NCBI GenBank assembly: GCA_028279745.1
Contig: JANQNC010000001.1
Location: 1,110,001-1,142,000 of the forward strand
From: Candidatus Nanoarchaeia archaeon
GTDB taxonomy: Archaea; Nanobdellota; Nanobdellia; Woesearchaeales; JANQNC01
Direction of reading: 5' to 3'
Length of the DNA: 32,000 bases
Below, one piece after another: positions 4,197 to 30,220 of this stretch. The notes beneath the pieces were generated by a model. The model did no database searches and was not told the origin of the DNA. It saw nothing but the letters and a program-made list of their open reading frames with translations. Position numbers and translations under genes: made by a program. Position 1 is the first letter of the stretch, and each line of letters opens with the position of its first letter.

Positions 4197-4288
4197 AACT
4201 TGTTTTGAGTTGGGTTTATTATTAAAGTTTGCTGTTTTTATGTTACTAGGATGTTGTGTTGTAGTTTCTCCTTCACTTGCTAGTTAGT

Positions 4289-4308
4289 GGCGCTCTTCCT
4301 ATCGCGCC
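4289..4308 (+). repeat. Hairpin-family copy 1: GGCGC-TCTTCCTATC-GCGCC followed by TTTAGAAA
   Basis: 5-bp GC stem with a 10-nt pyrimidine loop. It sits between the divergent ligase and nitroreductase promoters. See the hairpin-family finding. Confidence 0.5.
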
Positions 4309-4343
4309 TTTAGAAACATTTATTAATTGAGTAATATAGAAAT

Positions 4344-5247: not shown

Positions 5248-7686
5248 ATGATTGATAAAGAGAAACTAACAAAAATATTATTCTTTCTTTTACCTATATT
5301 AGTATTAGCATCATTATCATTTGCTCAAGAAACATGTTCAGAATATGACTGTGGAAATGGTGAATATGGGAGTTGTTTGCCAATAGGCGGACAAGCAGAA
5401 ATTCCAGAGTTTAATGCAACAGCACTAATAGTGCTGATAGTTGCATCATTATCACTATTCTTATTTGTAAGAAACCCAGACCAAGCAAAAGCATTTGTCA
5501 AAAAATACAAAGCACAAGTGCTGATGGGTGTATTAGTTGTAGTTGGAGGAACGTATCTGGCAAGCAACGCAAACATAACAGGATATGCAATCGTAGATCC
5601 AAACTATGAAGACGTAGGACAGTTTGATTGTAACGTAACAGAATCATGCTTCTGTCCAACCTGCCCAGATTACATGGAATGGAACATCTCAATCCAACAA
5701 TGTCAAAATGAAACACTAGGTCCAGGAGATCCATGCACAGAAGACTTCCAATGTATTGATGGGTTGGAGTGTGATGAGGGTGTTTGTGAATGCCCAGAAG
5801 GACAAGACTGGAACGAGTCAAGCCAGCAATGTGAATCAGAACCAGGAATAGTCTGCGGTAATGGAGACGTGGAAATAGGGGAAGAGTGTGATGATAACAA
5901 TAACAATAACGGAGATGGTTGTGACTCAACCTGCGATGTAGAAGACGGATGGGTGTGCACAGGAGAACCATCTGAGTGCTCAGCTGAAGAATGCGGAGAC
6001 GGCATCGTAGCTGGAGATGAAGAATGTGATGATGATAACACAAATAATGGAGATGGTTGTGATTCAACATGTGATGTAGAAGATGGTTGGGTATGCACAG
6101 GAGAACCATCAGAATGTTCAGAAAATTGTGGAGATGGCAACTTAGACATTGGGGAAGAGTGCGATGATAACAATCTAATAGGTGGAGATGGATGTAGTGC
6201 GGTATGCACAATAGAAGACACAGACTGTGGAAATGGACAGGTAGAATTCGGAGAAGAGTGTGATGTGAATGATCTAAACGGATTAACCTGTCTGGATTTT
6301 GACAGCTTCAACTTCGGAACATTATTCTGTGATAACAATTGTAATTATGATACTAGTTTATGTCAAGTGGATGAGAATACTAGCACAAATAACAGTGTGT
6401 GTGGAAATAACATCGTTGAAGCAGGAGAATCATGTGATGGAACAGACTTAAACGGATTAACATGTTTAGACTTTGATACATTCTTACCTGGAAGTGTAAC
6501 TTGTTTAGATGACTGTACATACAACACAACAACATGTGATGTGGATACAAACCAAACAACAGGAGGCGTTTGTGGTAATGGAAATGTAGAATCACCAGAA
6601 CAGTGTGATGACGGAAACACAAATGTGGGAGATGGATGTAACTCGGTGTGTCAAACTGAAACAAACAGCACAGGTGTGTGCGGAAATGGAATATTAGACT
6701 TAGGAGAACAATGTGACGATTCAAACACTAACAACGGAGATGGTTGTGATGCAACATGTGACGTTGAAGATGGGTGGCAATGTAATGGTATGCCATCACA
6801 ATGTACAGCAGAATTATGTGGAGATAACATAGTTGCAGGAAACGAAGAATGTGATGACGGCAACACTGTAAATGGAGATGGATGTAACTCAGTATGTGAA
6901 ACCGAATCTTCCGGAAGCGGAGGAGGAGGCGGTGGTAGAGGCAGCGGCAGTTGCACACCACAATGGGAATGCACAGAATGGAGTGACTGCGGATACTTCA
7001 GCGGAACAAGAACAAGGGAGTGTACTGATAAAAGAAACTGCAGAACAGATGTAAGTAAGCCTTCAGAAACAGACCAATGTAGGGGAATACCTGCATGTAG
7101 CGACGGATTGTGGAACAATGGAGAAGAAGGAATAGATTGTGGAGGAAACTGTGAACCATGCGAAGGGGCAGAAGTACAACAGCCAACACAAGTTACAGAA
7201 CCACAACCAGGACCTGAAACAGAAGAACCTGCACCAGTAGAAGAAAAACAAAGCTGGTGGTGGTTATGGTTATTATTGCTATTATTACTTGCAGCATTAT
7301 TGATAGGTGGATTCATGATGTCAAGAAGACAACAAGCAGTACCAATAAAACCAACACCTGCAGTACAACCACCAAAGCCACAAGTAGCACCGAGAACACC
7401 AACACAAAGACCATTTGTACAACAGGCACCAAGAGTTGCGCCAGTGCCACCAGTAGTAGCACCAGCACCAAAACCTGCGCCAGTAGTTCCACCAGTAAAA
7501 CCAGTAACAACACTTGATGAAGCAATAGCTGCAGCAAAAGCAGACATGACTAATCCTCAGTTCAATGGAGCAATGCACTCAGAAAGAATAAAAGAACTAT
7601 TCAAAAAATTACCAGTGCAAGAAAAGACAAAAAGATTTGAGGATGTAATGAAAGTACTGGAAATGATCAAGAAAAAAGTACAATAG
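5248..7686 (+). CDS. Membrane-anchored cysteine-rich repeat surface protein (DUF4215 / myxococcus-type Cys-rich repeats) with a Pro-rich C-terminal tail
   Basis: N-terminal signal-like segment. At least 8 repeats of CGNGxxExGExCDDxNxxxGDGCxxxC. A Gly run is followed by a TSP1-like CxxxWxCxxWSxC...RxC module. A C-terminal TM (WWWLWLLLLLLLAALLIGGFMM) is followed by a P/V/A-rich tail. SD AGGGG is present. Confidence 0.8.
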   Translation: MIDKEKLTKILFFLLPILVLASLSFAQETCSEYDCGNGEYGSCLPIGGQAEIPEFNATALIVLIVASLSLFLFVRNPDQAKAFVKKYKAQVLMGVLVVVGGTYLASNANITGYAIVDPNYEDVGQFDCNVTESCFCPTCPDYMEWNISIQQCQNETLGPGDPCTEDFQCIDGLECDEGVCECPEGQDWNESSQQCESEPGIVCGNGDVEIGEECDDNNNNNGDGCDSTCDVEDGWVCTGEPSECSAEECGDGIVAGDEECDDDNTNNGDGCDSTCDVEDGWVCTGEPSECSENCGDGNLDIGEECDDNNLIGGDGCSAVCTIEDTDCGNGQVEFGEECDVNDLNGLTCLDFDSFNFGTLFCDNNCNYDTSLCQVDENTSTNNSVCGNNIVEAGESCDGTDLNGLTCLDFDTFLPGSVTCLDDCTYNTTTCDVDTNQTTGGVCGNGNVESPEQCDDGNTNVGDGCNSVCQTETNSTGVCGNGILDLGEQCDDSNTNNGDGCDATCDVEDGWQCNGMPSQCTAELCGDNIVAGNEECDDGNTVNGDGCNSVCETESSGSGGGGGGRGSGSCTPQWECTEWSDCGYFSGTRTRECTDKRNCRTDVSKPSETDQCRGIPACSDGLWNNGEEGIDCGGNCEPCEGAEVQQPTQVTEPQPGPETEEPAPVEEKQSWWWLWLLLLLLLAALLIGGFMMSRRQQAVPIKPTPAVQPPKPQVAPRTPTQRPFVQQAPRVAPVPPVVAPAPKPAPVVPPVKPVTTLDEAIAAAKADMTNPQFNGAMHSERIKELFKKLPVQEKTKRFEDVMKVLEMIKKKVQ

Positions 7687-7997: not shown

Positions 7998-8243
7998 TAC
8001 TATTACCCCCTGATGAGTTCTATAAGGTATGTGGGTAAAGCAGATATATAAATCTTGTTTTTAATATATAGTTTTTATATAATTTTATTATAATATATTT
8101 TGAAGGTTATCGACGGAAGAATTATTATTTTCTATATTGAAAATAAATAACTGTTTTTTTTAATTTCATTTAAAAAGGGTTGCGAAATGTTTATAAAAAA
8201 GTACGAGCCAAAAACAAGATAGTAATTGGGGGGTCGGTTGACA

Positions 8244-8396
8244 ATGATGGACAAATTAAACAAGACTATGTGCTTCAACTTTATGAAAGTTGAGAATGGA
8301 GTTTTCAAACACAAACAAGTAGAAAAGAAAGACGGACAAGTTTTTCTAAGAATGAAACAAAGACCTGTAGTATTCGTTACAGCAGTTGCTGAGTGA
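8244..8396 (+). CDS. Candidate 50-aa small protein (MMDKLNKTMCFNFMKVENGVFKHKQVEKKDGQVFLRMKQRPVVFVTAVAE)
   Basis: Below the track cutoff. GGGGGGT SD lies ~10 nt upstream, the same SD type as neighbouring genes. TTTATAAAA TATA is near 8189-8198. A T-run follows the stop directly. It is the only coherent ORF in a 486-nt gap. Confidence 0.4.
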   Translation: MMDKLNKTMCFNFMKVENGVFKHKQVEKKDGQVFLRMKQRPVVFVTAVAE

Positions 8397-8483
8397 TTAT
8401 TTTTTCTAAATATTTTTTTTACATTATACCGTTAGGTTTAAATACATATAATTTCTTAAATAGATAAAAAGAGGTAGTTTAGA

Positions 8484-9815
8484 TTGGCAGGAATTTTCAA
8501 AGCTTATGATATAAGAGGAGTTTATGGAGAAGACCTAAGTGAAGACTTGTTCTATAAGATAGGAAGAGCATTTGTTATTATGGCTGGTGCAAAGAAGCTG
8601 GTTGTAGGCCATGATATGAGATTGTCATCGCCACATCTTTCTCAAAGCTTGATCAAAGGTATAATCGATCAAGGCTGTGATGTAGTCGACATAGGGTTAG
8701 CATCAACACCGATGGTCTATTTCGCATCAGGATTCCTTAATCTGGGCTCAATAAACGTAACTGCATCACATAACCCGGCAAAATACAATGGGTGTAAGTT
8801 TACAAGAGATGGAACAATACCTGTTAGTTACGATACTGGAATAAACGAGATAGAAAGATTGGTGAATGAGAACAACTTCCCTGAAGTAGAACAAAAAGGA
8901 AAACTAGAACATAAAAACGTAAAAAGTGAGTATTCGGATCATGTTAAGAAATTTGCAGGAGATATAAATAAAGATCTGAAAATAGTGATAGACTTCGGAA
9001 ACGGGATGGATTCATACACAGTACCGCCCATCTTCTGGGAGTTAGACATTAATTACATACCGATGTATGACAAGCTAGTTGGAAATTTTCCAAATCATGA
9101 AGCAAATCCCTTGAATCCTGATAATATGAAAGACTTGCAGGAGAAGGTTAAGGAAGTCAATGCAGACTTAGGAATAGCTTTTGATGGAGACGGAGACCGA
9201 GTTGGATTTGTGGATGAGAAAGGAGAGATAGTATCTAATGATTTAACAACTGCATTCTTTTCAAAGCACATACTGGCTGAAAATCCTGGAGTGGCAATAT
9301 GTTACGATCTAAGGTCCTCATTAGTTGTACCTGAAGTGATCAATGCAAATGGAGGAAGAGCAGAAATAACTTCAGTAGGACACACACTAATAAAACAAAA
9401 GATGAGAGATGTGGATGCTTTATTTGCAGGTGAACTTTCAGGACATTACTACTTTAAAGAAAATTTTGTAGCAGACTCAGCAATAATAGCTGCAGTGAAA
9501 TTTTTGACTTTGTTAACAAAAGAAGGCAAATCAGTGAGTGAGGTATTTAGTGAGTATAGAAAGTATGTTTCATCTGGTGAGGTTAATTCAGAAGTTCAAG
9601 ACAAAGATGCAATAATAAACGAACTAAAAGGAGAACATTACTTAGATGCAAAAGAAGTCCATGACTTTGATGGTGTTTTGAAAAGGTATGACGACTGGTG
9701 GTTCTTAGTAAGGCCGTCTAACACAGAACCTTTGTTAAGATTGATAGTAGAAGCAAAAACAGAAGAGTTAATGAAAGAAAAAGTAGATGAGTTATTGAAT
9801 ATTATCAGAAAGTAG
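8484..9815 (+). CDS. Phosphomannomutase / phosphoglucomutase (alpha-D-phosphohexomutase family)
   Basis: Active-site TASHNPAKYNG, Mg-binding FDGDGDRVGF, and GELSGHYYF. A TTG start is forced: a stop at 8475-8477 precedes it and the conserved FKAYDIRG begins at residue 5. SD AGAGGT is upstream. Confidence 0.9.
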   Translation: MAGIFKAYDIRGVYGEDLSEDLFYKIGRAFVIMAGAKKLVVGHDMRLSSPHLSQSLIKGIIDQGCDVVDIGLASTPMVYFASGFLNLGSINVTASHNPAKYNGCKFTRDGTIPVSYDTGINEIERLVNENNFPEVEQKGKLEHKNVKSEYSDHVKKFAGDINKDLKIVIDFGNGMDSYTVPPIFWELDINYIPMYDKLVGNFPNHEANPLNPDNMKDLQEKVKEVNADLGIAFDGDGDRVGFVDEKGEIVSNDLTTAFFSKHILAENPGVAICYDLRSSLVVPEVINANGGRAEITSVGHTLIKQKMRDVDALFAGELSGHYYFKENFVADSAIIAAVKFLTLLTKEGKSVSEVFSEYRKYVSSGEVNSEVQDKDAIINELKGEHYLDAKEVHDFDGVLKRYDDWWFLVRPSNTEPLLRLIVEAKTEELMKEKVDELLNIIRK

Positions 9816-9872
9816 ATGTTTCTTTTAAAACAAAATGGAAAAATATAAAAGAGAGAGTGATAAGTTTAGATT

Positions 9873-10118
9873 ATGGCAGGTGAATTTGATAATCAAAGAG
9901 TTCCAATGTACTTCTGGAAAAAAGTAGAAGATCTAATACGGCAGTATAAAACAGATCTGACACAAGAAGAATTTGTAGCAATAATGGCTGATGTACAAAA
10001 AGACTTCAAAGTTAGAGACGGAGTGTCAATAGAAGAGACAGACCATCAGTTCTTAGCAAAAGTAGATTCAAGAATAAGACAGATCTTAAATGATAAATAT
10101 GGGAAAGAATTTGATTAA
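9873..10118 (+). CDS. Hypothetical small protein (81 aa)
   Basis: Clean ORF with a GTGAT SD-like element upstream. No recognisable motif. Confidence 0.5.
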   Translation: MAGEFDNQRVPMYFWKKVEDLIRQYKTDLTQEEFVAIMADVQKDFKVRDGVSIEETDHQFLAKVDSRIRQILNDKYGKEFD

Positions 10119-11765: not shown

Positions 11766-11844
11766 AGCTACAGAGGAAAGTTATCTTATTTAAATATAGC
11801 AGTCCAAAAGTTTATATACCCCTTATTCTTGAAATGAGTAAAAA

Positions 11845-11865
11845 GAGCGTGATAGAAAGTCGCTC
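11845..11865 (-). repeat. Hairpin-family copy on the minus strand: GAGCG-ACTTTCTATCA-CGCTC followed by TTTTTAC (minus-strand reading)
   Basis: 5-bp stem with an 11-nt loop. The loop core CTTTCTATC matches CTTCCTATC of copy 1. A second small hairpin (CAAG-ATTT-CTTG, 11866-11877) is adjacent. Confidence 0.45.
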
Positions 11866-11901: not shown

Positions 11902-12675
11902 ATGGTAACACTATTTAGGAAGAAAAAGAAACAAGAGGAGAAGAAACCAGAAGTTTTTAACACAGTCAAAGCAACAGACATGGTATCAACCTTATTCTAC
12001 CTTAGTCAAGGGATAAAAAAAGAAGAAAATAGACCTTATAGTGCAGTCTATGAACCAGACACAAGAACACTAAAAAGACATGATGATCCTTCACTAAACA
12101 GGGAGGGAAGCATACAAACAAAATACCATTCTATAAATAGATCCACTGTGAACGTGAATGAACTAGAACTAATCGCAAAAAGTTTATACAAAAAAACAGA
12201 AGGATTTGAAGAATTCCAAGAAGGACTAAAAGAACTTGGAGTCTATATACTAACGCTAAAACATCACAATGGTGCTGTGGGGATGGTTGCACACCCTATT
12301 AAGCATGAAGGAATAAGTATTGATGTAGAAATCGCAAAAAGCGGAGAGGATGGAGTTTATTCATATAATCCAACTTTCCATAATGTAAGAATAAAACAAT
12401 CTCAATATCCAAGAACTGAAGAGGAAACAAAAATACTTAGAGCAGTGGGAGATAAGTTGGATTCAAGACTTGTAAAAGCAGGTTCAGACTATCCTGTGGA
12501 AATGAGGATAAATTCTACAGAGGATATGCATATGATGCAAGGACCAGTACAACTTAAAGATCTTAAAAAGAGCTGTGAAAATCTGGAAAGGCTGGAGTGG
12601 GTGTATGTGCAATACTTACACCAAGAGTCGCAAGAGATTGCAGCAAAAATAGATAAAATTATGAAAAACAAATGA
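11902..12675 (+). CDS. Hypothetical protein heading the pyr operon
   Basis: 257-aa ORF with a strong SD (GGAGGT, GAGGT) upstream. It ends 14 nt before pyrF. No recognisable motif. Confidence 0.6.
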   Translation: MVTLFRKKKKQEEKKPEVFNTVKATDMVSTLFYLSQGIKKEENRPYSAVYEPDTRTLKRHDDPSLNREGSIQTKYHSINRSTVNVNELELIAKSLYKKTEGFEEFQEGLKELGVYILTLKHHNGAVGMVAHPIKHEGISIDVEIAKSGEDGVYSYNPTFHNVRIKQSQYPRTEEETKILRAVGDKLDSRLVKAGSDYPVEMRINSTEDMHMMQGPVQLKDLKKSCENLERLEWVYVQYLHQESQEIAAKIDKIMKNK

Positions 12676-21713: not shown

Positions 21714-22108
21714 TGAACCTACCATTTTTCAAAAAGAAAGAAGAAAAAGATGAATTGCCTGGATTAGATGAAGGACTTCCAGGAGCAGAACCGCTGCCTG
21801 GAGCAGAACCAACACTGCCGGGTTCAGAACCGAACCTTCCAGGAATGCCTTCAGAAACAACAACCGAAACATCTGGAGGAGTACAGACAACTTTTCAACC
21901 GCCAGGCGCACCAGAACAAGAAGAGCTTATGCCTTCAGTAAAACCTGGTCTGCAACACTCACCAATAGAACCAAAACAAGACTATACATCACCAAAAGAT
22001 CTCGAGATAGTTTCTGCTAAGCTAGATAACTTAAGACTAAGCTTTGAAGTATTAAACCAGAAACTAGACAACATCGAAAAGATGTTAAGAGAGAAAAGGA
22101 CTTGGTGA
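21713..22108 (+). CDS. Pro-rich LPG-repeat protein with a C-terminal coiled coil
   Basis: TAATG overlap with the upstream gene. Five LPGxEP-type repeats, then LEIVSAKLDNLRLSFEVLNQKLDNIEKMLREK. Confidence 0.6.
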   Translation: MNLPFFKKKEEKDELPGLDEGLPGAEPLPGAEPTLPGSEPNLPGMPSETTTETSGGVQTTFQPPGAPEQEELMPSVKPGLQHSPIEPKQDYTSPKDLEIVSAKLDNLRLSFEVLNQKLDNIEKMLREKRTW

Positions 22109-22231
22109 ATGACTTTCTTAAAAGACACGACCGGAGGAGTTTCACTTTAATGAAATCTAGTGTAGTTTTTTAAGTTAAGTTCAATTGAAGCAGTAAATGT
22201 TATAAACGAAGAATACTATGTTGGTGTATAG

Positions 22232-22251
22232 GCAGCTCCACTTGTCGCTGC
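22232..22251 (+). repeat. Hairpin-family copy: GCAGC-TCCACTTGTC-GCTGC followed by TCTTTTGAAAG
   Basis: 5-bp stem with a 10-nt loop, 11 nt upstream of the lspA ATG. Confidence 0.45.
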
Positions 22252-22262
22252 TCTTTTGAAAG

Positions 22263-22712
22263 ATGAAAAGGAAAAACTTGATGATTGTTTTGGTGTCTTT
22301 GGTTATTGTTTTACTAGACCAATTAACAAAAGGATTAGTTAGACATAACATGCAAACTGGTGAGAGCATACCTTTACTAAACAATTTTTTACACTTGACA
22401 TATGTTCAAAATGCGGGTGCGGGATTTGGGATACTGCAAGGCCAACAAGTTCTGTTTATTGTTTTGTCAGTCATTGTTCTTGGAGGCATAGCTTACTATT
22501 ACAAAAGAATTCCAGATATAGTTTCCTACAATGTTGTGACTGCAATGCTGATAGGAGGAACTATTGGAAATCTAGTTGACAGGATATTCTTAGGATATGT
22601 AGTTGATTTTTTGGATTTCAGAATTTGGCCAGTTTTCAATGTTGCAGACTCCTGTTTAACAATAGCGATAGTTATTATGATAATAATGAGCTTTAAGATG
22701 AATAAGAAATAA
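22263..22712 (+). CDS. lspA: Lipoprotein signal peptidase (signal peptidase II)
   Basis: DQLTK, NAGAGFG, GGTIGNLVDR, GYVVDFLDF and FNVADS. This is the full set of LspA motifs, including both catalytic Asp contexts. Confidence 0.85.
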   Translation: MKRKNLMIVLVSLVIVLLDQLTKGLVRHNMQTGESIPLLNNFLHLTYVQNAGAGFGILQGQQVLFIVLSVIVLGGIAYYYKRIPDIVSYNVVTAMLIGGTIGNLVDRIFLGYVVDFLDFRIWPVFNVADSCLTIAIVIMIIMSFKMNKK

Positions 22713-22714
22713 TT

Positions 22715-23269
22715 TTATCTTTTTGATGTTTTCTTCTTAGCTTTTTTCTTTGTTGATTTTTTACTTTTCTTTTTAGCAGTTTTTTTCTTACCTGATTTCT
22801 TTTTTGCTTTTTTCTTTGTTGGCTTCTTTTCAGGCTTGATCCCATAATACTTCTCAACCTTGATGTTTGAAGCAGCAATATTATCAAAAGCAGAATCGAC
22901 CTCAGCTCTAAGCTCTTTAATCGTTTTCTCGCTCAAAGATTTTCTTAAAGTCGTTGTGTTGTTAACACTTATAACAAACCCTAACGACATAAGAATTATG
23001 CCAATCACAAAAAAAGCCAAACTGACATCGGAAGTGTTAGAGAAATTTGCGATGATCATAACAATCATGTTAATCGCATAAAAGACTGAAAGCCTGAATA
23101 TCTTCTTTCTTGACTGTGTGAATGTCAGATAAACTGCACCCAGAACAAAAAGCAGTTCCCATATGACTGAACCTAAAATGTTAAACGGTTTTAAGAACCC
23201 GACAAGCGCAAAAAAACTTAACATAAGCAACAGACTGCTACCCAGTGAAAGAACTTTTTTACCCCCCAT
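22715..23269 (-). CDS. Multi-pass membrane protein with a lysine-rich C-terminal tail
   Basis: About four hydrophobic helices, then a 40-aa tail KPEKKPTKKKAKKKSGKKKTAKKKSKKSTKKKAKKKTSKR. Confidence 0.6.
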   Translation of the reverse strand: MGGKKVLSLGSSLLLMLSFFALVGFLKPFNILGSVIWELLFVLGAVYLTFTQSRKKIFRLSVFYAINMIVMIIANFSNTSDVSLAFFVIGIILMSLGFVISVNNTTTLRKSLSEKTIKELRAEVDSAFDNIAASNIKVEKYYGIKPEKKPTKKKAKKKSGKKKTAKKKSKKSTKKKAKKKTSKR

Positions 23270-23329
23270 CTTAAAATTAAGTGATGGGAAAATTATATAT
23301 AAGCCTTTCTATGCTAAAGTAGTAACTAA

Positions 23330-23707
23330 CTAGAACTCTTCAATCTCTTCCAGCTTGCTCAAGTAACCTTTGTCTTTAAGCCACTTAACCTGTGTGAAAG
23401 TGTATTTGAAAATTATGTTGCCTTTTTCATCAGCAGAATACTCCCAAGGCTCAACGATGATTATGTCATTCTCTCTGATCCACAACCTTTTCTTTAACCT
23501 TCCAGGAATAGAACAAATTCTTGTCTTGCCGTCTAAACATCTAACTCTTGCCCTGCTGCCGCCCAGTCTTTGTTCAACAATGCCAAAGGTCTCGGGAGGT
23601 CTTGGTGTTCTTACATGCCTGATAACTTCCTCTGTCTGAGGAGCTTTACCTTTCTTTTTATTGAAATTTGTCTTCTTTTTGGGCTTTTTCTTAAACATCT
23701 CCCCCAT
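23330..23707 (-). CDS. eif1a: Translation initiation factor aIF-1A
   Basis: S1-like OB core [48 protein letters not shown]. Confidence 0.9.
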
Positions 23708-23791
23708 AGTAGAAGGCTGTGGTATATAAAGGTCACTATTATTCTAAAAGGCAAAACTTTATAAACAATTCCCAAATCCTCAAGGGTAATA

Positions 23792-24172
23792 ATGGCAAGA
23801 TCACAAACAAGACCAAAACGAAAAGCAACTGGTGGAAGATATAGCAAGTTGTACAGAAAGAAGAAACAGTACGAAGTAGGAAGCACACCAGTATTGACAA
23901 AAGTAGAAGATACAAAAGCTAAAAAAGTAAGAGTTGTTGGCGGAAACGAAAAACACAAACTACTTTCTTGCGATACAGTTAACTTAATGACAAAAGAAGG
24001 CAAGTGTGTAAAAACAAAGATAAAAACAGTAGAAGACAACCCAGCAAACAGAAACTTTGTAGTCAGGAACATACTAACTAAAGGTGCAGTTATAGAAACT
24101 GAGAAAGGAAAAGCAAAGATAACAAACAGACCTGGACAAGAAGGAACTGTTAATGCATTACAGATAGAATGA
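23792..24172 (+). CDS. rps8e: 30S ribosomal protein S8e
   Basis: MARSQTRPKRKATGGRY...VRVVGGNEKHKLL...RNILTKGAVIETE is characteristic of S8e. SD AGGGT. Confidence 0.9.
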   Translation: MARSQTRPKRKATGGRYSKLYRKKKQYEVGSTPVLTKVEDTKAKKVRVVGGNEKHKLLSCDTVNLMTKEGKCVKTKIKTVEDNPANRNFVVRNILTKGAVIETEKGKAKITNRPGQEGTVNALQIE

Positions 24173-24204
24173 AACTCATTTAATTTTTTTAGGAGGAAAA
24201 AAAG

Positions 24205-24432
24205 ATGGAACAATCAAGACCACTAGATACCTTGAACCAATCAAGGGGAAAAAGAGTAATAGTAGAGACAAAGAACGGAAAACAGTACGTAGGAAAACTA
24301 ACTGCATTTGACATACACATAAATGTTGTGTTATCAGAAGCAGAAGAAAAGGTAGATGGTGAGTTAAAGAGAAAACTAGGAAACATCTTCTTACGAGGAG
24401 ACACGATCATACTAATCGCACCACAAGAATAA
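24205..24432 (+). CDS. Sm-like archaeal protein (SmAP/LSm)
   Basis: Sm1 and Sm2 motifs (GKRVIVETKNGKQYVGKLTAFDIHINVVL, IFLRGDTIILI). SD GGAGG. The neighbourhood with L37e is the conserved archaeal arrangement. Confidence 0.9.
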   Translation: MEQSRPLDTLNQSRGKRVIVETKNGKQYVGKLTAFDIHINVVLSEAEEKVDGELKRKLGNIFLRGDTIILIAPQE

Positions 24433-24433
24433 A

Positions 24434-24598
24434 ATGGGAACCGGAACAGCAGCACTAGGAAAGAAATCAGGAAAAAAGACACACATCTACTGTAGAAGAT
24501 GTGGTCAAAGAACCTATCATGCAACCAAGAAAAAATGTGCTAGCTGTGGCTTCGGTGTTAAAGCAAAACAAAGAACATACACTTGGCAAAAGAAGTGA
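24434..24598 (+). CDS. rpl37e: 50S ribosomal protein L37e (54 aa, below the track cutoff)
   Basis: Translation: MGTGTAALGKKSGKKTHIYCRRCGQRTYHATKKKCASCGFGVKAKQRTYTWQKK. It contains a CxxC...CxxC zinc ribbon and starts 1 nt after the Sm stop. Confidence 0.9.
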   Translation: MGTGTAALGKKSGKKTHIYCRRCGQRTYHATKKKCASCGFGVKAKQRTYTWQKK

Positions 24599-24602
24599 TC
24601 TC

Positions 24603-24609
24603 TTTTTTT
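24603..24609 (+). terminator. T7 run directly after rpl37e (archaeal oligo-T terminator candidate)
   Basis: tcTTTTTTTa begins 3 nt after the stop codon. Confidence 0.4.
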
Positions 24610-24722
24610 ATATTATTTGTATGTTGATTTTTTGATTTTTTAGTGTAATTTATTTTGGTTATTTTAAGGTATTATTTTTTTGGGTTTGATCTGTTTTATG
24701 TTCACATTTAATTGGGTGTTAG

Positions 24723-24742
24723 GGCGCTCTTCTTATTGCACC
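24723..24742 (+). repeat. Hairpin-family copy: GGCGC-TCTTCTTATT-GCACC followed by TCTTTTGGAAAA
   Basis: Same geometry as copy 1, with one C.A mismatch in the stem. It shares the upstream TGGGTTT...CTGTTTTATGTT block with copy 1. Confidence 0.45.
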
Positions 24743-24808
24743 TCTTTTGGAAAATTTACGGTTTTTGTGTGTGAACTTATTTAAGCATTAAGATTAATAA
24801 TCTATTTT

Positions 24809-25456
24809 ATGAACCAAATAATTCTTAATGAGCAGACTGCTTACCTTTCAGGAATGATTGTGGGTGACGGACATCTTTCTAACTCTGTAAAGTCTAAACG
24901 AAACGATGCTTCAAGAGATTATAGAATCACTTTGGACATAGTGGATAGAGAACATCTTTTTCTAGTTTTTAGAATTATAAAGGGGTTGATACAAACTAAA
25001 TCAGAACCCAAAGAAGTTAACCAAGGCGGCAACAGGATCAGGCGTTATTGTTTTCAATTTAGAAATAAAGATCTTTTTTTGTTTTTTCATGAAGAGTTAG
25101 GAATCCCAAAAGGTGCAAAGAGCTCGGTTGTGAGTGTGCCTTTGAAAATAAAGTTTTCTGGTGAAGAGATAAGGAGGAACTTTTTGGCAGGGTACTTTGA
25201 TGCAGATGGGGGTTTTAGGGGGAACACTTTGGGTTTCACCACTGCGAGTAAAAATTTAAATGAGGATATTGCAGAAATGTTGGGTGATTTTTCTTTTTCA
25301 TTTACTAAAGAGAGCTGGGTGAATAAGAAGTATGGAAAAACTTTTTTTGGTATTAGATTGAGGAGAAGTGAAATAGATAGATTTTTAAATAATTTCCCTC
25401 TCCGCAACAAAGAAAAGCTTGAAAGGATAAACAAGCGATTTAAAATCCAGGTTTAG
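24809..25456 (+). CDS. Free-standing double-motif LAGLIDADG homing endonuclease
   Basis: Two LAGLIDADG motifs: YLSGMIVGDGHL and FLAGYFDADGGF. 215 aa, an I-DmoI-like size. TATA-like CTTATTTAAGC lies ~25 nt upstream. Confidence 0.85.
   Translation: MNQIILNEQTAYLSGMIVGDGHLSNSVKSKRNDASRDYRITLDIVDREHLFLVFRIIKGLIQTKSEPKEVNQGGNRIRRYCFQFRNKDLFLFFHEELGIPKGAKSSVVSVPLKIKFSGEEIRRNFLAGYFDADGGFRGNTLGFTTASKNLNEDIAEMLGDFSFSFTKESWVNKKYGKTFFGIRLRRSEIDRFLNNFPLRNKEKLERINKRFKIQV
25439..25446 (+). promoter_or_regulatory. TATA box candidate (TTTAAAAT) for tRNA-Leu, inside the 3' end of the LAGLIDADG ORF
   Basis: Centred ~29 nt upstream of tRNA position 1, preceded by the purine-rich AAGCGA. Confidence 0.4.
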
Positions 25457-25471
25457 TTAGCTAATTAATAT

Positions 25472-25586
25472 GTGGGGATGCCGGAGCGGCCAAACGGGCC
25501 AGAGGAAGAGGTCTATTTGCCTTTTTCGGCCAAGCTTAGGACCTGGTAGCTTAGTGCTTACGGGGGTTCGAATCCTCCTCCCCACA
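25472..25586 (+). tRNA. tRNA-Leu(UAG), class II, with a 31-nt intron; no encoded CCA
   Basis: Hand fold. Acceptor GUGGGGA/UCCCCAC, with discriminator A. D arm CCG(G)...(A)CGG with AGCGGCCAA loop. T arm GGGGG-UUCGAAU-CCUCC. 15-nt variable region. After removing 25503-25533, the anticodon stem is CCAGG/CCUGG and the loop is CUUAGGA (anticodon 25537-25539). Confidence 0.85.
25503..25533 (+). other. tRNA intron at non-canonical position 30/31 with a bulge-helix-bulge fold
   Basis: Central 4-bp helix GGCC (25497-25500) / GGCC (25528-25531). It is flanked by the 3-nt bulges AGA (25501-25503) and AAG (25532-25534). Both junctions fall after the second bulge nucleotide. The intron-internal helix is 8 bp (25504-25511 with 25520-25527). 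Confidence 0.7.
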
Positions 25587-25594
25587 TTTTTTTT
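25587..25594 (+). terminator. T8 run immediately 3' of the tRNA
   Basis: TTTTTTTT follows the discriminator base directly. The thrC ATG is 3 nt further on. Confidence 0.5.
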
Positions 25595-27040: not shown

Positions 27041-27526
27041 GATCATTATTCCTATATATTAGTTATATATTAAATGTTTAATCGGGGTATATGTTTTATA
27101 TGTGATTTGCAAAAAAATATCAGATTTTAGTATGATTTTTTGTAAATGGGTCTTTTTGAGTACTTTGGAGTGGTATGGGTCAAATCGCTTCAAGATAAAG
27201 AATTCTTAAGTTTGAGCTAACAGTCGATAACACTTAATAATTTTATATATGAAAATAAATACAAATTTGTGTGCTATAGGATACAAAACTTTATAAATCA
27301 AATTGAGTCATATAGGTGTATGCTAATAGTCATAGCAGTAATTACCGCCGATAACAACGAAGGATTCGAGTGTTGTTAATACTTGTATCCGAGACACACG
27401 CAGAAAAAACGAAAACGTTATAAACGATATGAAATGACTGACAGCAAAAAAGGGGGAAGATGGTTGAGTACTCTTCTCTAATGAACAAAAACAAAAAACA
27501 AACAGTAAACACGGAGGTGTTTAGAT

Positions 27527-30220
27527 ATGAACGTAAAGAAAGCAATAAGTAAGGTAGTTGCTTTAGGAACAGGAGCAGTAATGTTGGGAGCAACACTCGC
27601 AGCAGCACAGCCAAGCCTAGCAAACTACCCAGCACCGTTCGTCGAAAATGGCGTATTCAACGCTGTAATCGGGATCGGAGGCGACAGTAAAGCAATCGAC
27701 AACATGGCAATGACAAACATTGCAACAGGATTGCAAGCTGACACAAGCGGATCATCAAGCGATGGACCTGCTGTAAGTGGAGAAAGTGCAAGTCTTTCAA
27801 GTGGAACTAACAAAGTTTACTTAGGACAAGCATTGAACACAAACGTTGACACATTGACAGATGATGACTTGCCAACAATATTGGCAGACGGAACATTTGA
27901 AGATGACAACGGCGACGAAACAGACTACCAACAATCAATTGTTGTAGGTGCAACACCAGTTCTTGCATTTAGTGATAGTGGATCTGACTTAGATGACCCA
28001 GCTCTATTGTTACAGATGGACGACAATTCTGGAAACCAAAACTACCAATTGAAAGTTAACTTCGATTCAGCAGTCGACTTCAATGATGCTGCATCAGAAG
28101 GAGAAAAACTTCCTCTATTCGGAAGAGAATACACAGTTGGAACAGGCACAGATGCTGACACATTAGTTCTACTAGGTGGAGCTAGAACAGTAAACCTTGC
28201 AGTTGGAGAAACTCTAGAAATTGATTTCGGAGGAGAAGACTATAAGATAACTGTTGTAGGTGTATCAGATGATAACCCAGACACAGCAACAATCACTGTG
28301 AACGGAGATACCGAATCTGTAACACAAGGAAACAGCAAAGAGATCGGTGGTGTAGACATTCTAGCAGACACAGTACAAGCATTCAACACAGAGGCAAACC
28401 CTGGTTATGTTGTACTAAAACTAGGATCTGACGAAATCCAATTGGAAGACACAGACAACGTATTGATGGGAAGTTCAAGAGACGCAGTTGACGGAACACT
28501 AGTAGCATTCGGTGGAACCCCAGACGCTATGACATCATTAACCATCAACGTAGCAGCACTAGACAACGATGCAGACCATTTATTACTGGGTGAAAGCTTC
28601 ACAGACACCGTATTCGGAACAGTGAAAATGACACTAAGTGAGTTAAAGAATGGACCTATGATCGATGGTGAGCAAGACACAAGTTCAGCAAGAGAAGTTA
28701 TTGAATTCAGTAGCGACTCAGGTGGAGCAGCTCTAAGCGTTGTAGCAACAAAAGGTGGAGACACAGCAACACTACCATTCGATGAAGGTGCAGCTCTAGA
28801 AGATGAGGACAGCAACGATATCGAAATAGTAGAAGGTGCACAAATCACTGAAGATGAATACACAGTACTAGTTGCAGGAAACGAACAAGTATTCGTACAA
28901 GCAACAAGAGTTGTGTGTGATAACGGTGGTGGAGACGCAGACGACGATGTAACCCTAAGAGACCAGTTCACAAATGCAGACTACAAGTTAGAAGACAAAG
29001 ACTTGGACGCAGCAAATGACCTGGTAATCAAAGGACAAACATTCAACGTAGACTGTGTAGCAGCTAATACTGTTGTAATAACTTCCGCAGCAAACGATGG
29101 AGACGACGACGGTATCCTAGGAGATACAGATGGAGATACAATCCAAGTATTCCCATACTTTGAGCCTCTATCAGGAAGAGACCACAGGATAGCTATGGTT
29201 GACGAAGCACTAACCGTACCTGCAGCAGGATTTACAGGTCTTGTTAATGGTGCAGACCTAGTACTGGCTCTACCAACAGGAGATCTAAGCATAGACTTTG
29301 CTGACGACGCAGGTGGGGACGACTGTGACCTTACAGGAACTGTAGGCGGAACAACTGTTTTCACAACAGACGGTGCAAGTGATACAGACGAGATCGCTGC
29401 AACTGTTGGCGCTGTTGACTACATCTTAGAGCTTAACATGGCTGTAGATGATGGTGATGCAGATTGTGACGACGAAGCAGGAATGTCTTTCGATGTTGCA
29501 GTAGATAGCGACCAAGACGCAGACGTAGATGGTGAATTACAAGTACCAGGTCTATTATTAGTTGAGGAAGAGGATAACTCTGAATCAGACGCGCAAAACG
29601 CAGTACTGATCCCAACCGCAACTGATGGTGGAAGCGGAGACGAAGAAGTTGGAACACCTGTATTCACAGCAGCAAACAGTGATACAGACACATTCGACGA
29701 CTCTGACTTTGCAGGTTACTTGGACTCATTCGGAACATATGTTCTAGTGGATTCATCTAACAGCGACCACACACTAGCTACAGTAACATTCCCTAACGAG
29801 CAGATGTACGCAGACGTTCTGATCTCAGAAGAGACAGCAACAATTGCAGCATCAAGCAGTGCAGGAGCAATGGGAGCTAGCACAATCAGTGTTGACGCAA
29901 CATTATTCGACTACGAAATTGCAAGTCTGTCAAGCCAGAACACAATTATCGTAGCTGGAGGATGTGTAAACGAGCTAGCAGCTGACTTCATGGGAGTACC
30001 TTACGGTGAGTTCCCTGCATGTGCAGGTGACCTACAAGAAGGTGAAGCTATAATCGCAGTAAAAGAATACGGTGATTACACAGCACTTCTAGCAGCTGGT
30101 TACTCAGGCGACGACACAAGAAGAGCTGGAATCGTTCTACACGACTACACTTCATACCCACTAAGTGGATCTGAAGTAAAAGTTACAGGAACAGATTTCA
30201 CAAACATCGTTGTGGAATAA
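27527..30220 (+). CDS. S-layer protein (MJ0822-like S_layer_N/S_layer_C architecture), highly acidic
   Basis: Signal peptide KKAISKVVALGTGAVMLGATLAAA, followed by YPAPFVENGVFNAVIGIGGDSKAIDNMAMTNIATGL. C-terminal NTIIVAGGCVNELAADF...AGYSGDDTRRAG. Strong SD GGAGGTG, a more G+C-rich codon usage than the neighbours, and a long T-rich terminator region. Confidence 0.75.
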   Translation: MNVKKAISKVVALGTGAVMLGATLAAAQPSLANYPAPFVENGVFNAVIGIGGDSKAIDNMAMTNIATGLQADTSGSSSDGPAVSGESASLSSGTNKVYLGQALNTNVDTLTDDDLPTILADGTFEDDNGDETDYQQSIVVGATPVLAFSDSGSDLDDPALLLQMDDNSGNQNYQLKVNFDSAVDFNDAASEGEKLPLFGREYTVGTGTDADTLVLLGGARTVNLAVGETLEIDFGGEDYKITVVGVSDDNPDTATITVNGDTESVTQGNSKEIGGVDILADTVQAFNTEANPGYVVLKLGSDEIQLEDTDNVLMGSSRDAVDGTLVAFGGTPDAMTSLTINVAALDNDADHLLLGESFTDTVFGTVKMTLSELKNGPMIDGEQDTSSAREVIEFSSDSGGAALSVVATKGGDTATLPFDEGAALEDEDSNDIEIVEGAQITEDEYTVLVAGNEQVFVQATRVVCDNGGGDADDDVTLRDQFTNADYKLEDKDLDAANDLVIKGQTFNVDCVAANTVVITSAANDGDDDGILGDTDGDTIQVFPYFEPLSGRDHRIAMVDEALTVPAAGFTGLVNGADLVLALPTGDLSIDFADDAGGDDCDLTGTVGGTTVFTTDGASDTDEIAATVGAVDYILELNMAVDDGDADCDDEAGMSFDVAVDSDQDADVDGELQVPGLLLVEEEDNSESDAQNAVLIPTATDGGSGDEEVGTPVFTAANSDTDTFDDSDFAGYLDSFGTYVLVDSSNSDHTLATVTFPNEQMYADVLISEETATIAASSSAGAMGASTISVDATLFDYEIASLSSQNTIIVAGGCVNELAADFMGVPYGEFPACAGDLQEGEAIIAVKEYGDYTALLAAGYSGDDTRRAGIVLHDYTSYPLSGSEVKVTGTDFTNIVVE

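Follow-up and report, generated by a model that had tools for sequence, protein, structure and literature searches.

The 32,000-nt stretch of DNA analyzed here (herein referred to as the window) is archaeal, has a G+C content of 37% and encodes an archaeal/eukaryotic-type ATP-dependent DNA ligase, aIF1A, S8e, L37e, an LSm protein and a free-standing LAGLIDADG protein. The closest genomes are metagenome-assembled genomes of Woesearchaeota/Nanoarchaeota, in which identity reaches at most 62% for the ligase and at most 65% for the nitroreductase encoded next to it. Promoters, as read from the sequence, take the form of BRE/TATA boxes ∼27 nt 5′ of start codons, and neither sigma-70-like promoters nor hairpin terminators are enriched in the window. 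Many of its genes look leaderless. Between 23.6 and 24.6 kb the mechanical list of open reading frames is misleading, the true genes there being S8e, LSm and L37e, all on the + strand. The gene label of DHH phosphoesterase rests on a DHHA1 match at E = 0.04 and is not confirmed. Protein searches with the LAGLIDADG and DUF4215 proteins found no paralogues of either in the same genome. Logan contigs (SRR20820740) added ∼12 kb of flanking sequence outside the window (10 kb on its right and 2.4 kb on its left), such that the source-genome sequence covered comes to 44 kb of ∼1.30 Mb.

Spacers account for ∼9% of the window, and every copy of the hairpin described here is located in one of them. The first copy (c1, 4277..4322, + strand) lies in the divergent spacer between the DNA ligase (−) and nitroreductase (+) genes, and comprises the head TTGCTAGTTAGT, a hairpin at 4289-4308 (GGCGC-TCTTCCTATC-GCGCC) and the tail TTTAGAAACATTTA. 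The second (c2, 24711..24758, + strand) occupies the co-directional spacer between the L37e (+) and LAGLIDADG (+) genes, with the head ATTGGGTGTTAG, a hairpin at 24723-24742 (GGCGC-TCTTCTTATT-GCACC) and the tail TCTTTTGGAAAATTTA. The third (c3, 22220..22262, + strand) ends 1 nt before the ATG of lspA and consists of the head GTTGGTGTATAG, a hairpin at 22232-22251 (GCAGC-TCCACTTGTC-GCTGC) and the tail TCTTTTGAAAG. A probable decayed copy (c5, 22119..22155, − strand; stem GAAAC/GTGTC with 4/5 pairs, loop TCCTCCGGTC, tail TTTTAAGAAAG) is inverted relative to c3 and lies ∼65 nt to its left, in a head-to-head arrangement. Finally, a doubtful member (c4, 11845..11865, − strand; GAGCG-ACTTTCTATCA-CGCTC) has an 11-nt loop and, when read on the + strand, lies ∼5 nt past the predicted transcription start of the gene at 11902-12675. 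Four of these hairpins (c1, c2, c3, and c4) had been described from the sequence as a four-copy intergenic family with a conserved loop and covarying stems (herein the sequence-only reading), and their coordinates and sequences were all exact on re-reading.

The conserved unit spans ∼45 nt and consists of a 12-nt head ending in TAG (consensus TTGG.TGT.TAG), a 5-bp G+C-rich stem, a 10-nt loop with two fixed outermost bases at either edge, and a tail rich in T. Immediately before the stem the copies read GTTAGT, GTTAG, and TATAG, so that TAG is kept within a tetranucleotide TTAG(T) or ATAG; directly after it they read TCTTTTGRAA in c2 and c3 and TTTAGAAA in c1. The hairpins of c1 and c2 are identical at 17 of 20 positions, hairpin identity across the copies is 60–85%, and head and tail together are ∼83% identical between c2 and c3. 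The hairpin is the sole structure common to the copies. A head and a tail are conserved besides it, which argues for common descent rather than for convergent terminators.

Several searches of the window support the homology of c1, c2, and c3. They are reciprocal best non-self matches in single-sequence nhmmer searches (E = 0.023 for c2 to c3, 0.051 for c2 to c1 and 0.073 for c1 to c2), and local alignment of whole spacers scores 72 for c1 and c2 against a shuffle maximum of 52, and 42 for c2 and c3 against a shuffle maximum of 39. Using leave-one-out covariance models (37 positions, 5 pairs), c3 is the top non-training match of the c1+c2 model in the window (20.4 bits, E = 0.0023) and c1 that of the c2+c3 model (19.7 bits, E = 0.011); in an empirical control, the c1+c2 model returned a single match of at least 20.4 bits from 1.09 Mb of relatives, equivalent to ∼0.03 per window. 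With the core removed, the spacer pairs resemble shuffled sequence (p = 0.67, 0.33, and 0.016, where unrelated spacers reach 0.015–0.035). An upstream block (TGGGTTT...CTGTTTTATGTT) that the sequence-only reading took to be shared by two of the copies is no more similar than shuffled T-rich sequence (p = 0.67) and drops out of the unit. Additionally, a unit of ∼115 nt carrying its own promoter, as suggested by the whole-spacer alignment, was dropped because the distal parts of the spacers are unlike each other. The unit is hence short and was not accompanied by a promoter, a point against duplicated RNA genes.

The remaining two sites are less secure. With the c1+c2 covariance model the c4 hairpin reaches 13.0 bits (E = 0.28); it does not appear among the matches of the c1–c3 covariance model even at E ≤ 10, and as an nhmmer query it finds none of c1–c3. 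It shares 8/9 loop-core bases with c1, its stem is perfect but unrelated, and its flanks are unrelated as well. A strict post-hoc test, which demanded a 5-bp G+C-rich stem free of mismatches and a loop core matching at 8/9 positions or more, gave 0 matches across 1.13 Mb from relatives and, on shuffled windows, an average of 0.015 each; under a loop matrix trained on c1–c3, c4 falls below the 6-bit cut-off (∼5 bits by hand calculation), and matches of at least 6 bits occur ∼3 times per 44 kb in relatives. Membership of c4 is possible rather than proven, and its perfect stem, previously offered as structural support, is therefore not countable as such. The c5 site reaches 17.9 bits (E = 0.009) with the c1–c3 model and 12.7 bits (E = 0.33) with the c1+c2 model, and is not significant when judged by hairpin and loop alone. 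That c4 and c5 rank next after the true members under the c1+c2 model, and that both lie in spacers, is suggestive but no more. When 22105-22270 is folded, c5 does not pair with c3, so the two do not form a single long hairpin. The family is thus real but smaller than claimed: c1, c2, and c3 are demonstrably related, one further copy is decayed and one, c4, is marginal.

The pattern of substitution in the stem bears on whether the hairpin itself has been maintained. Between c1 and c3, four of the ten stem bases have changed, and all of the changes are compensatory (G-C to C-G and C-G to A-T); these two compensated pairs and the single C.A mismatch of c2 are as the sequence-only reading described them. 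The probability that four random stem substitutions would retain five Watson–Crick pairs is 0.005, or 0.017 with G.U allowed. Covariation extends to positions 3 and 8 of the loop (U-A, U-A, and C-G, read on the − strand). Selection on structure, as originally proposed, stands on a thin base, effectively one comparison (c1/c2 vs. c3) with two compensated pairs, or three when loop positions 3 and 8 are included. Judged from these sequences, the hairpin appears to be under selection, which the substitutions support rather than prove.

Beyond the sites described above, we find no further occurrence of the unit. The ∼12 kb of flanks outside the window contain no copies. Rfam 15 gives no match at gathering score across the whole window and none at E ≤ 10 for the c1 region, and its three matches in 22100-24810 are chance-level snoRNA matches that do not lie on the units. 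A covariance-model scan of relatives, the check proposed along with the original description, covered the surroundings of the DNA ligase gene in 74 related archaea (1.1 Mb in total) together with a syntenic contig (L078); it gave chance-level matches only, the best of which lies inside a ligase coding sequence, and hence no further family members. The ligase/nitroreductase pair is syntenic in relatives, where the spacer measures 85 nt and has no hairpin (L002–L005 and L010), and the orthologous spacer of L078, the closest syntenic contig, is 264 nt long and has no match; the nearest relative is at 62–65% protein identity. In one relative (L020) this position is occupied by an insertion of another kind, 88 nt long, that contains a TATA-like box, a G+C-rich hairpin and a T-run; there was no second case of it among the related loci compared. 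With a degenerate pattern of 24 nt that fits both c2 and c3, metagenomes yielded 11 matches, all in unrelated contigs of high G+C content; most of these do not form hairpins, and we take all of them to be due to chance. The same pattern had no matches in viral contigs. As far as is visible, the family would be specific to this lineage.

This restricted distribution bears on the simplest alternative, namely that the units have no function and represent a few old local spacer duplications, or are partly due to chance, with the hairpin kept by luck. The pairwise matches are each modest (E = 0.002–0.07), a match at the level of c3 has a false-positive rate of ∼0.03 per window, the folding energies are ordinary and there are no copies in the relatives, flanks, metagenomes or viruses searched. 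However, the copies are reciprocal best matches that all fall within the ∼9% of the window that is spacer DNA and align in register on the hairpin, and neither their uneven conservation nor a stem that changes only by compensation (P ∼0.005–0.02) is expected of neutral decay. We consider this explanation unlikely.

If the hairpin is maintained, the strand on which it is read becomes of interest, and the evidence points in both directions. The C.A mismatch of c2 on the + strand is a U.G pair on the − strand, where all pairs are retained in all three copies. Consistent with this, the − strand is the only one for which RNAfold predicts the hairpin in each of the three copies, the minimum-energy fold of the c2 + strand lacking it, and RNAalifold gives −9.6 kcal/mol for the − strand versus −7.6 for the + strand, with covariation terms of −1.44 and −0.33, respectively. 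Folding z-scores are ∼0 on the + strand and −0.8 to −1.7 on the − strand, and stability is hence not unusual on either. Pairing slightly favours the − strand. On this strand the hairpin has the form stem-GA-N6-GA-stem (such as GGCGC-GA-UAGGAA-GA-GCGCC in one copy), and the most conserved positions of the loop are the dinucleotides at its two edges, where A2 and G9 are invariant (5/5 copies) and G1 and A10 are kept in 4/5.

This form raises the possibility of a − strand RNA hairpin with the sequence form of a K-loop, a candidate ligand of an L7Ae-family protein. The helix is capped by dinucleotides capable of tandem G.A/A.G pairing around a 6-nt loop, and in c1 and c2 GAA precedes the 3′ GA, which we take to match the bulge of the well-studied k-turn Kt-7. 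In this arrangement the units resemble published K-loops and k-turns (PMC5539422, PMC3985660, PMC3884654), and L7Ae is known to bind k-turns in archaeal mRNAs (PMC5539422). Compatibility with a K-loop on the − strand, assessed by sequence rather than by geometry, extends to c1, c3, and c5; c4 has a U at 2b, and c2 has an A for G at 2n, a change that is tolerated by L7Ae, which binds a k-turn carrying it (PMC3985660). However, the units have no C-helix and no 3-nt bulge and are therefore not k-turns proper: the six nucleotides between the GA dinucleotides are a terminal loop, such that only the K-loop form is possible, and the pair beside the G.A pairs is a Watson–Crick C-G. The GA edges comprise four positions, seen in three to five sequences that are themselves related, and relatives show no excess of GA..GA-edged hairpins (3 observed vs. 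5.2 expected). Furthermore, no promoter can be read upstream of c3 on this strand, and RNA made at c2 or c3 would be antisense to nothing and would lack a U-tract at which to stop. We regard the − strand hairpin as distinctly unlikely, and its more specific version, in which the units are dispersed K-loop-type hairpins serving as L7Ae-family-bound tags in spacer transcripts, as improbable. The units also differ from C/D and H/ACA RNAs, whose boxes they lack; an archaeal box C/D sRNA was rejected on the grounds that there is no C (RUGAUGA) or D (CUGA) box on either strand of the three units and their flanks.

The transcriptional context, read from the sequence, leans toward the other strand, given the T-tract after the stem, the TATA-like boxes at c2 and c3 and the lack of a − strand promoter at c3 (such a promoter is readable at c2 and arguable at c1). 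In c2 and c3 the hairpin is preceded, at a distance of 22–24 nt, by TATA-like boxes (24694-24701 and 22200-22207, respectively), the second of which (GTTATAAAC) recurs as a TATA-like box upstream of the gene at 27527; c1 has no TATA box at a matching distance. The position relative to the core promoter of the downstream gene is different for each copy. The c1 hairpin lies 10 nt upstream of the predicted nitroreductase TATA box (4319-4326) and the c2 hairpin 34 nt upstream of that of the LAGLIDADG gene (24777-24784), whereas c3 starts ∼2 nt past the transcription start predicted from the box at 22200-22207 and would hence form the 5′ end of the lspA mRNA. The earlier statement that the hairpins are unlikely to be ordinary terminators or 5′ UTR elements accordingly holds only in part: c1 and c2 are upstream of the TATA box, whereas for c3 it would fail. 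On the 5′ side, c1 has no co-directional upstream gene, and c2 lies beyond three T6–T7 runs that already follow L37e.

These observations can be accommodated by a + strand RNA module, in which the stem-loop and its U-tract (CUCUUUUG) act as a promoter-proximal stop, an attenuator or a 5′-end cap. The product would be either a very short RNA or a downstream mRNA with structure at its 5′ end. All three solid copies share the direction of the downstream gene, TCTTTTGRAA is kept right after the stem in c2 and c3, and transcription directed by the TATA-like boxes of the same two copies would begin where the stem begins. Against this, the C.A mismatch removes the hairpin from the minimum-energy fold of c2, the z-scores on this strand are ∼0, c1 lacks the TATA-like box and precedes the core promoter of its downstream gene, and the loop edges would be tandem pyrimidine mismatches, for which we know of no role. 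A simple terminator scan, in which the window counts were 11 versus 10.7 expected and 15 versus 12.0 expected, called none of the unit sites, and hairpin terminators are not enriched. Termination in archaea needs only oligo-T. The + strand module is a possibility that we hold with considerable doubt. A plain intrinsic terminator is ruled out: a G+C-rich + strand stem followed by TCTTTTG in two copies does resemble the hairpin and T-run of transcript ends (intrinsic terminators of bacteria and the hairpins that occur near 3′ ends in archaea), but the 5-bp stem, the 10-nt loop and the sequence conservation in the loop and both flanks are unlike such terminators, as are the negative scan, the missing upstream gene of c1 and the z-scores of ∼0. 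Considered together, the contexts of c1, c2, and c3 are inconsistent in either orientation, a situation that a repeat acting at the level of DNA tolerates and a dedicated RNA does not.

Two further ideas concerning RNA or protein products found little to sustain them. The speculation that the CU-rich loop pairs with Shine–Dalgarno-like sequences gained no support: only c1 has a long complement (12 nt, located inside the PGM gene), c2 and c3 have none of at least 11 nt, and the slight preference in pairing is for the strand opposite to that of the CU-rich loop. A coding origin, by way of small hydrophobic open reading frames that run across c1–c3, was rejected because the reading frame relative to the hairpin differs among the copies.

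A palindrome near promoters might alternatively be the operator of a DNA-binding regulator acting on the nitroreductase, lspA, and LAGLIDADG genes. The unit is an inverted repeat, c1 abuts a BRE/TATA region, c3 overlaps a predicted transcription start, and small winged helix-turn-helix (wHTH) and AbrB-type regulators are among the genes encoded in the window. Yet the half-sites change complementarily (GGCGC to GCAGC) while the nonpalindromic 10-bp center is kept, which is the opposite of the pattern expected for a dimeric regulator; the position relative to the promoter differs for each copy, and the three genes have no evident functional link. We judge an operator to be highly improbable. The options originally listed for the hairpins (a REP-like repeat, a small RNA or a factor-binding site) are still the right short list, and the factor-binding site is the weakest of them, since the half-sites change by compensation and the spacer between them is kept.

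The closest formal parallels are the bacterial REP/REPIN elements, that is, the GTAG-tagged repetitive extragenic palindromes (PMC3733652, PMC2817692, PMC3116915). Like these, the unit is a short, extragenic, G+C-rich imperfect palindrome (20 nt inside a unit of ∼45 nt) with a conserved unpaired head that ends in TAG directly 5′ of the stem, complementary stem variants and a possible head-to-head pair (c3/c5). In stem and loop length it agrees with published GTAG-type REPs, which have stems of 5–13 bp, loops of 2–20 nt and an unpaired head; degenerate heads are known, and REP doublets form head-to-head pairs (PMC3733652). Unlike the bacterial elements, the units reside in an archaeon, have a head of TTAG or ATAG rather than GTAG and a 10-nt loop that is both long and conserved, and are represented by three solid and two doubtful copies in the 44 kb covered, where REPs count tens to hundreds per genome; moreover, the c3/c5 doublet is not one hairpin, and there is no RAYT gene in the 44 kb. 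RAYTs are not known in Archaea, RAYT/REP systems having been reported so far only in Bacteria, and only the IS200-type TnpA having been reported in Archaea (PMC6006769). A second parallel lies with the hairpins found subterminally in IS200/IS605 elements and in miniature derivatives of these; in common with them, the unit has a small hairpin with conserved flanks that would be read as single-stranded DNA. The IS200/IS605-type transposase does occur in Archaea (PMC6006769); however, no transposase, paired left and right ends or defined target site was found for the units, and neither a Y1/HUH nor any other transposase is present among the genes called in the 44 kb (by Pfam and gene tables).

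Other classes of repeats or sites were dismissed on structural grounds. A MITE is ruled out by the size of the unit (only ∼45 nt vs. 100–400 bp), by distal spacers that are not homologous, by the absence of an inverted partner for c1 and c2 and by 4-nt ATGA flanks that occur only around the c3/c5 stretch. The tails resemble the GAAAC/GAAAG ends of CRISPR repeats, yet there is no array or regular spacing. An integron attC site, a tRNA fragment, and an origin-recognition box were dropped because their defining boxes or arrangement are absent.

We propose that the copies are members of a family of short palindromic repeats dispersed among spacers, specific to this lineage, low in copy number and REP-like in form, a reading to which we assign a probability of roughly 35%. 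What is directly supported is the homology of the three copies, their location exclusively in spacers, the maintenance of the hairpin and the absence of the unit from relatives. Under the REP-like reading, the unit would have been copied between spacers as DNA, and the stem-loop would have been retained as the recognized part, either as single-stranded DNA folded for a copying enzyme or as a stem-loop in a transcript that crosses the spacer; the protein responsible for recognition is a postulate of this scheme. Once placed, the + strand version of the unit could set a stem-loop and U-tract at the start or end of neighboring transcripts, with possible effects on them. Both orientations are represented if c4 and c5 are counted. 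The 150-nt stretch that contains c3 and c5 (22113-22262) is bordered by ATGA on both sides, and its excision would restore a stop codon TGA abutting the lspA ATG (TGA|ATG), although these flanks are only 4 nt long and could have arisen by chance. Three solid copies in 44 kb, fairly divergent from one another, do not look like a recent burst, which speaks against the REP-like reading.

At present, the family is a small, real and unexplained repeat that provides a useful annotation and a seed model rather than a discovery. It is most likely a short dispersed palindromic repeat, of a form that would be new by virtue of its archaeal host. Should the unit be a transcribed, protein-binding hairpin, it would add a small regulatory RNA motif, restricted to one lineage, to a group for which, to our knowledge, almost no RNA biology is on record, and if the K-loop reading were true, it would indicate a regulatory or RNP-seeding use of k-turns outside of rRNA, guide RNAs and the l7ae leader. 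If, instead, many copies turn out to be present in the full genome, the unit would be a REP-like palindromic repeat in an archaeon, and one would have to ask what enzyme is responsible for copying it in a DPANN genome of 1.3 Mb.

One possible partner for the loop of hairpin copy c1 (4289–4308, +) lies within the window itself, at 8558–8569 (+), where GATAGGAAGAGC, located 74 nt into a phosphoglucomutase-like gene, forms a perfect 12-nt complement to the c1 loop and stem edge (GCTCTTCCTATC). Because neither of the related copies c2 (24723–24742, +) and c3 (22232–22251, +) has a complement of at least 11 nt, this complementarity is probably due to chance. The gene context of c2 also has to be revised, since the longer minus-strand open reading frames (ORFs) in a mechanical ORF list (23611–24213 and 24189–24524) are spurious and the plus strand there carries a cluster encoding S8e, LSm (Sm-like) and L37e (23792–24598, +).

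The spacer that holds c1, between the DNA ligase (−) and nitroreductase (+) genes, can also be compared among related archaea. At 9867–9961 of the ligase locus L020, from one related genome, the orthologous spacer is ~88–95 nt longer; the extra sequence contains a TATA-like box, a G+C-rich hairpin (GGAGGGCGGGCATGCTGCCTCC) and ATTTTG, is missing from the near-identical spacers of loci L003, L005 and L010, and has no second example among the related loci compared. A stretch of the ligase-proximal spacer (4246–4280, AGGATGTTGTGTTGTAGTTTCTCC; purine-rich when read on the minus strand, AAGGAGAAAC...) is similar to 2624–2665 (AGGTGTTGTTTTTGGTTTCTTTCC) in the spacer of the closest relative, L078, a similarity that could reflect a conserved leader or tiny ORF upstream of the ligase.

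Elsewhere, the promoter regions 8436–8473 and 11810–11847 (+) have GTTTAWATAC...TAAAAAGAG in common (71% over 38 nt), a likeness probably explained by a TATA box and start-site context of the same kind in both; the second region extends into c4 (11845–11865, −), the doubtful fourth copy of the sequence-only reading. Two spacers (7998–8483 and 27041–27526) are unusually long at 486 nt each and match nothing in Rfam, even with the cut-off at E ≤ 1; the first contains a 37-aa ORF that is called in the Logan assembly in which the same sequence occurs.

Among the other proteins encoded in the window is one of 812 aa (5248–7686, +) that carries DUF4215 cysteine-rich repeats and has a syntenic counterpart of 808 aa in L078. 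The best non-self matches of the 812-aa protein are proteins of Myxococcota and candidate-phyla bacteria (~40% identity over less than half its length), so that it may be a transferred surface protein. Two paralogous genes lie side by side in divergent orientation (275–1240, −, and 1329–2273, +); their products both begin with an AbrB/MazE-type domain, one of them also has a weak PhoU match, and they are likely DNA-binding regulators.

A tRNA gene at 25471–25587 (+), which was detected neither by ARAGORN at default settings nor by Rfam, is called as tRNA-Pro(agg) by ARAGORN when introns are allowed. Its intron, of 33 nt, interrupts the gene at position 32/33, which is non-canonical; the variable arm is long, and the class II shape suggests tRNA-Leu(UAG) rather than the proline assignment.
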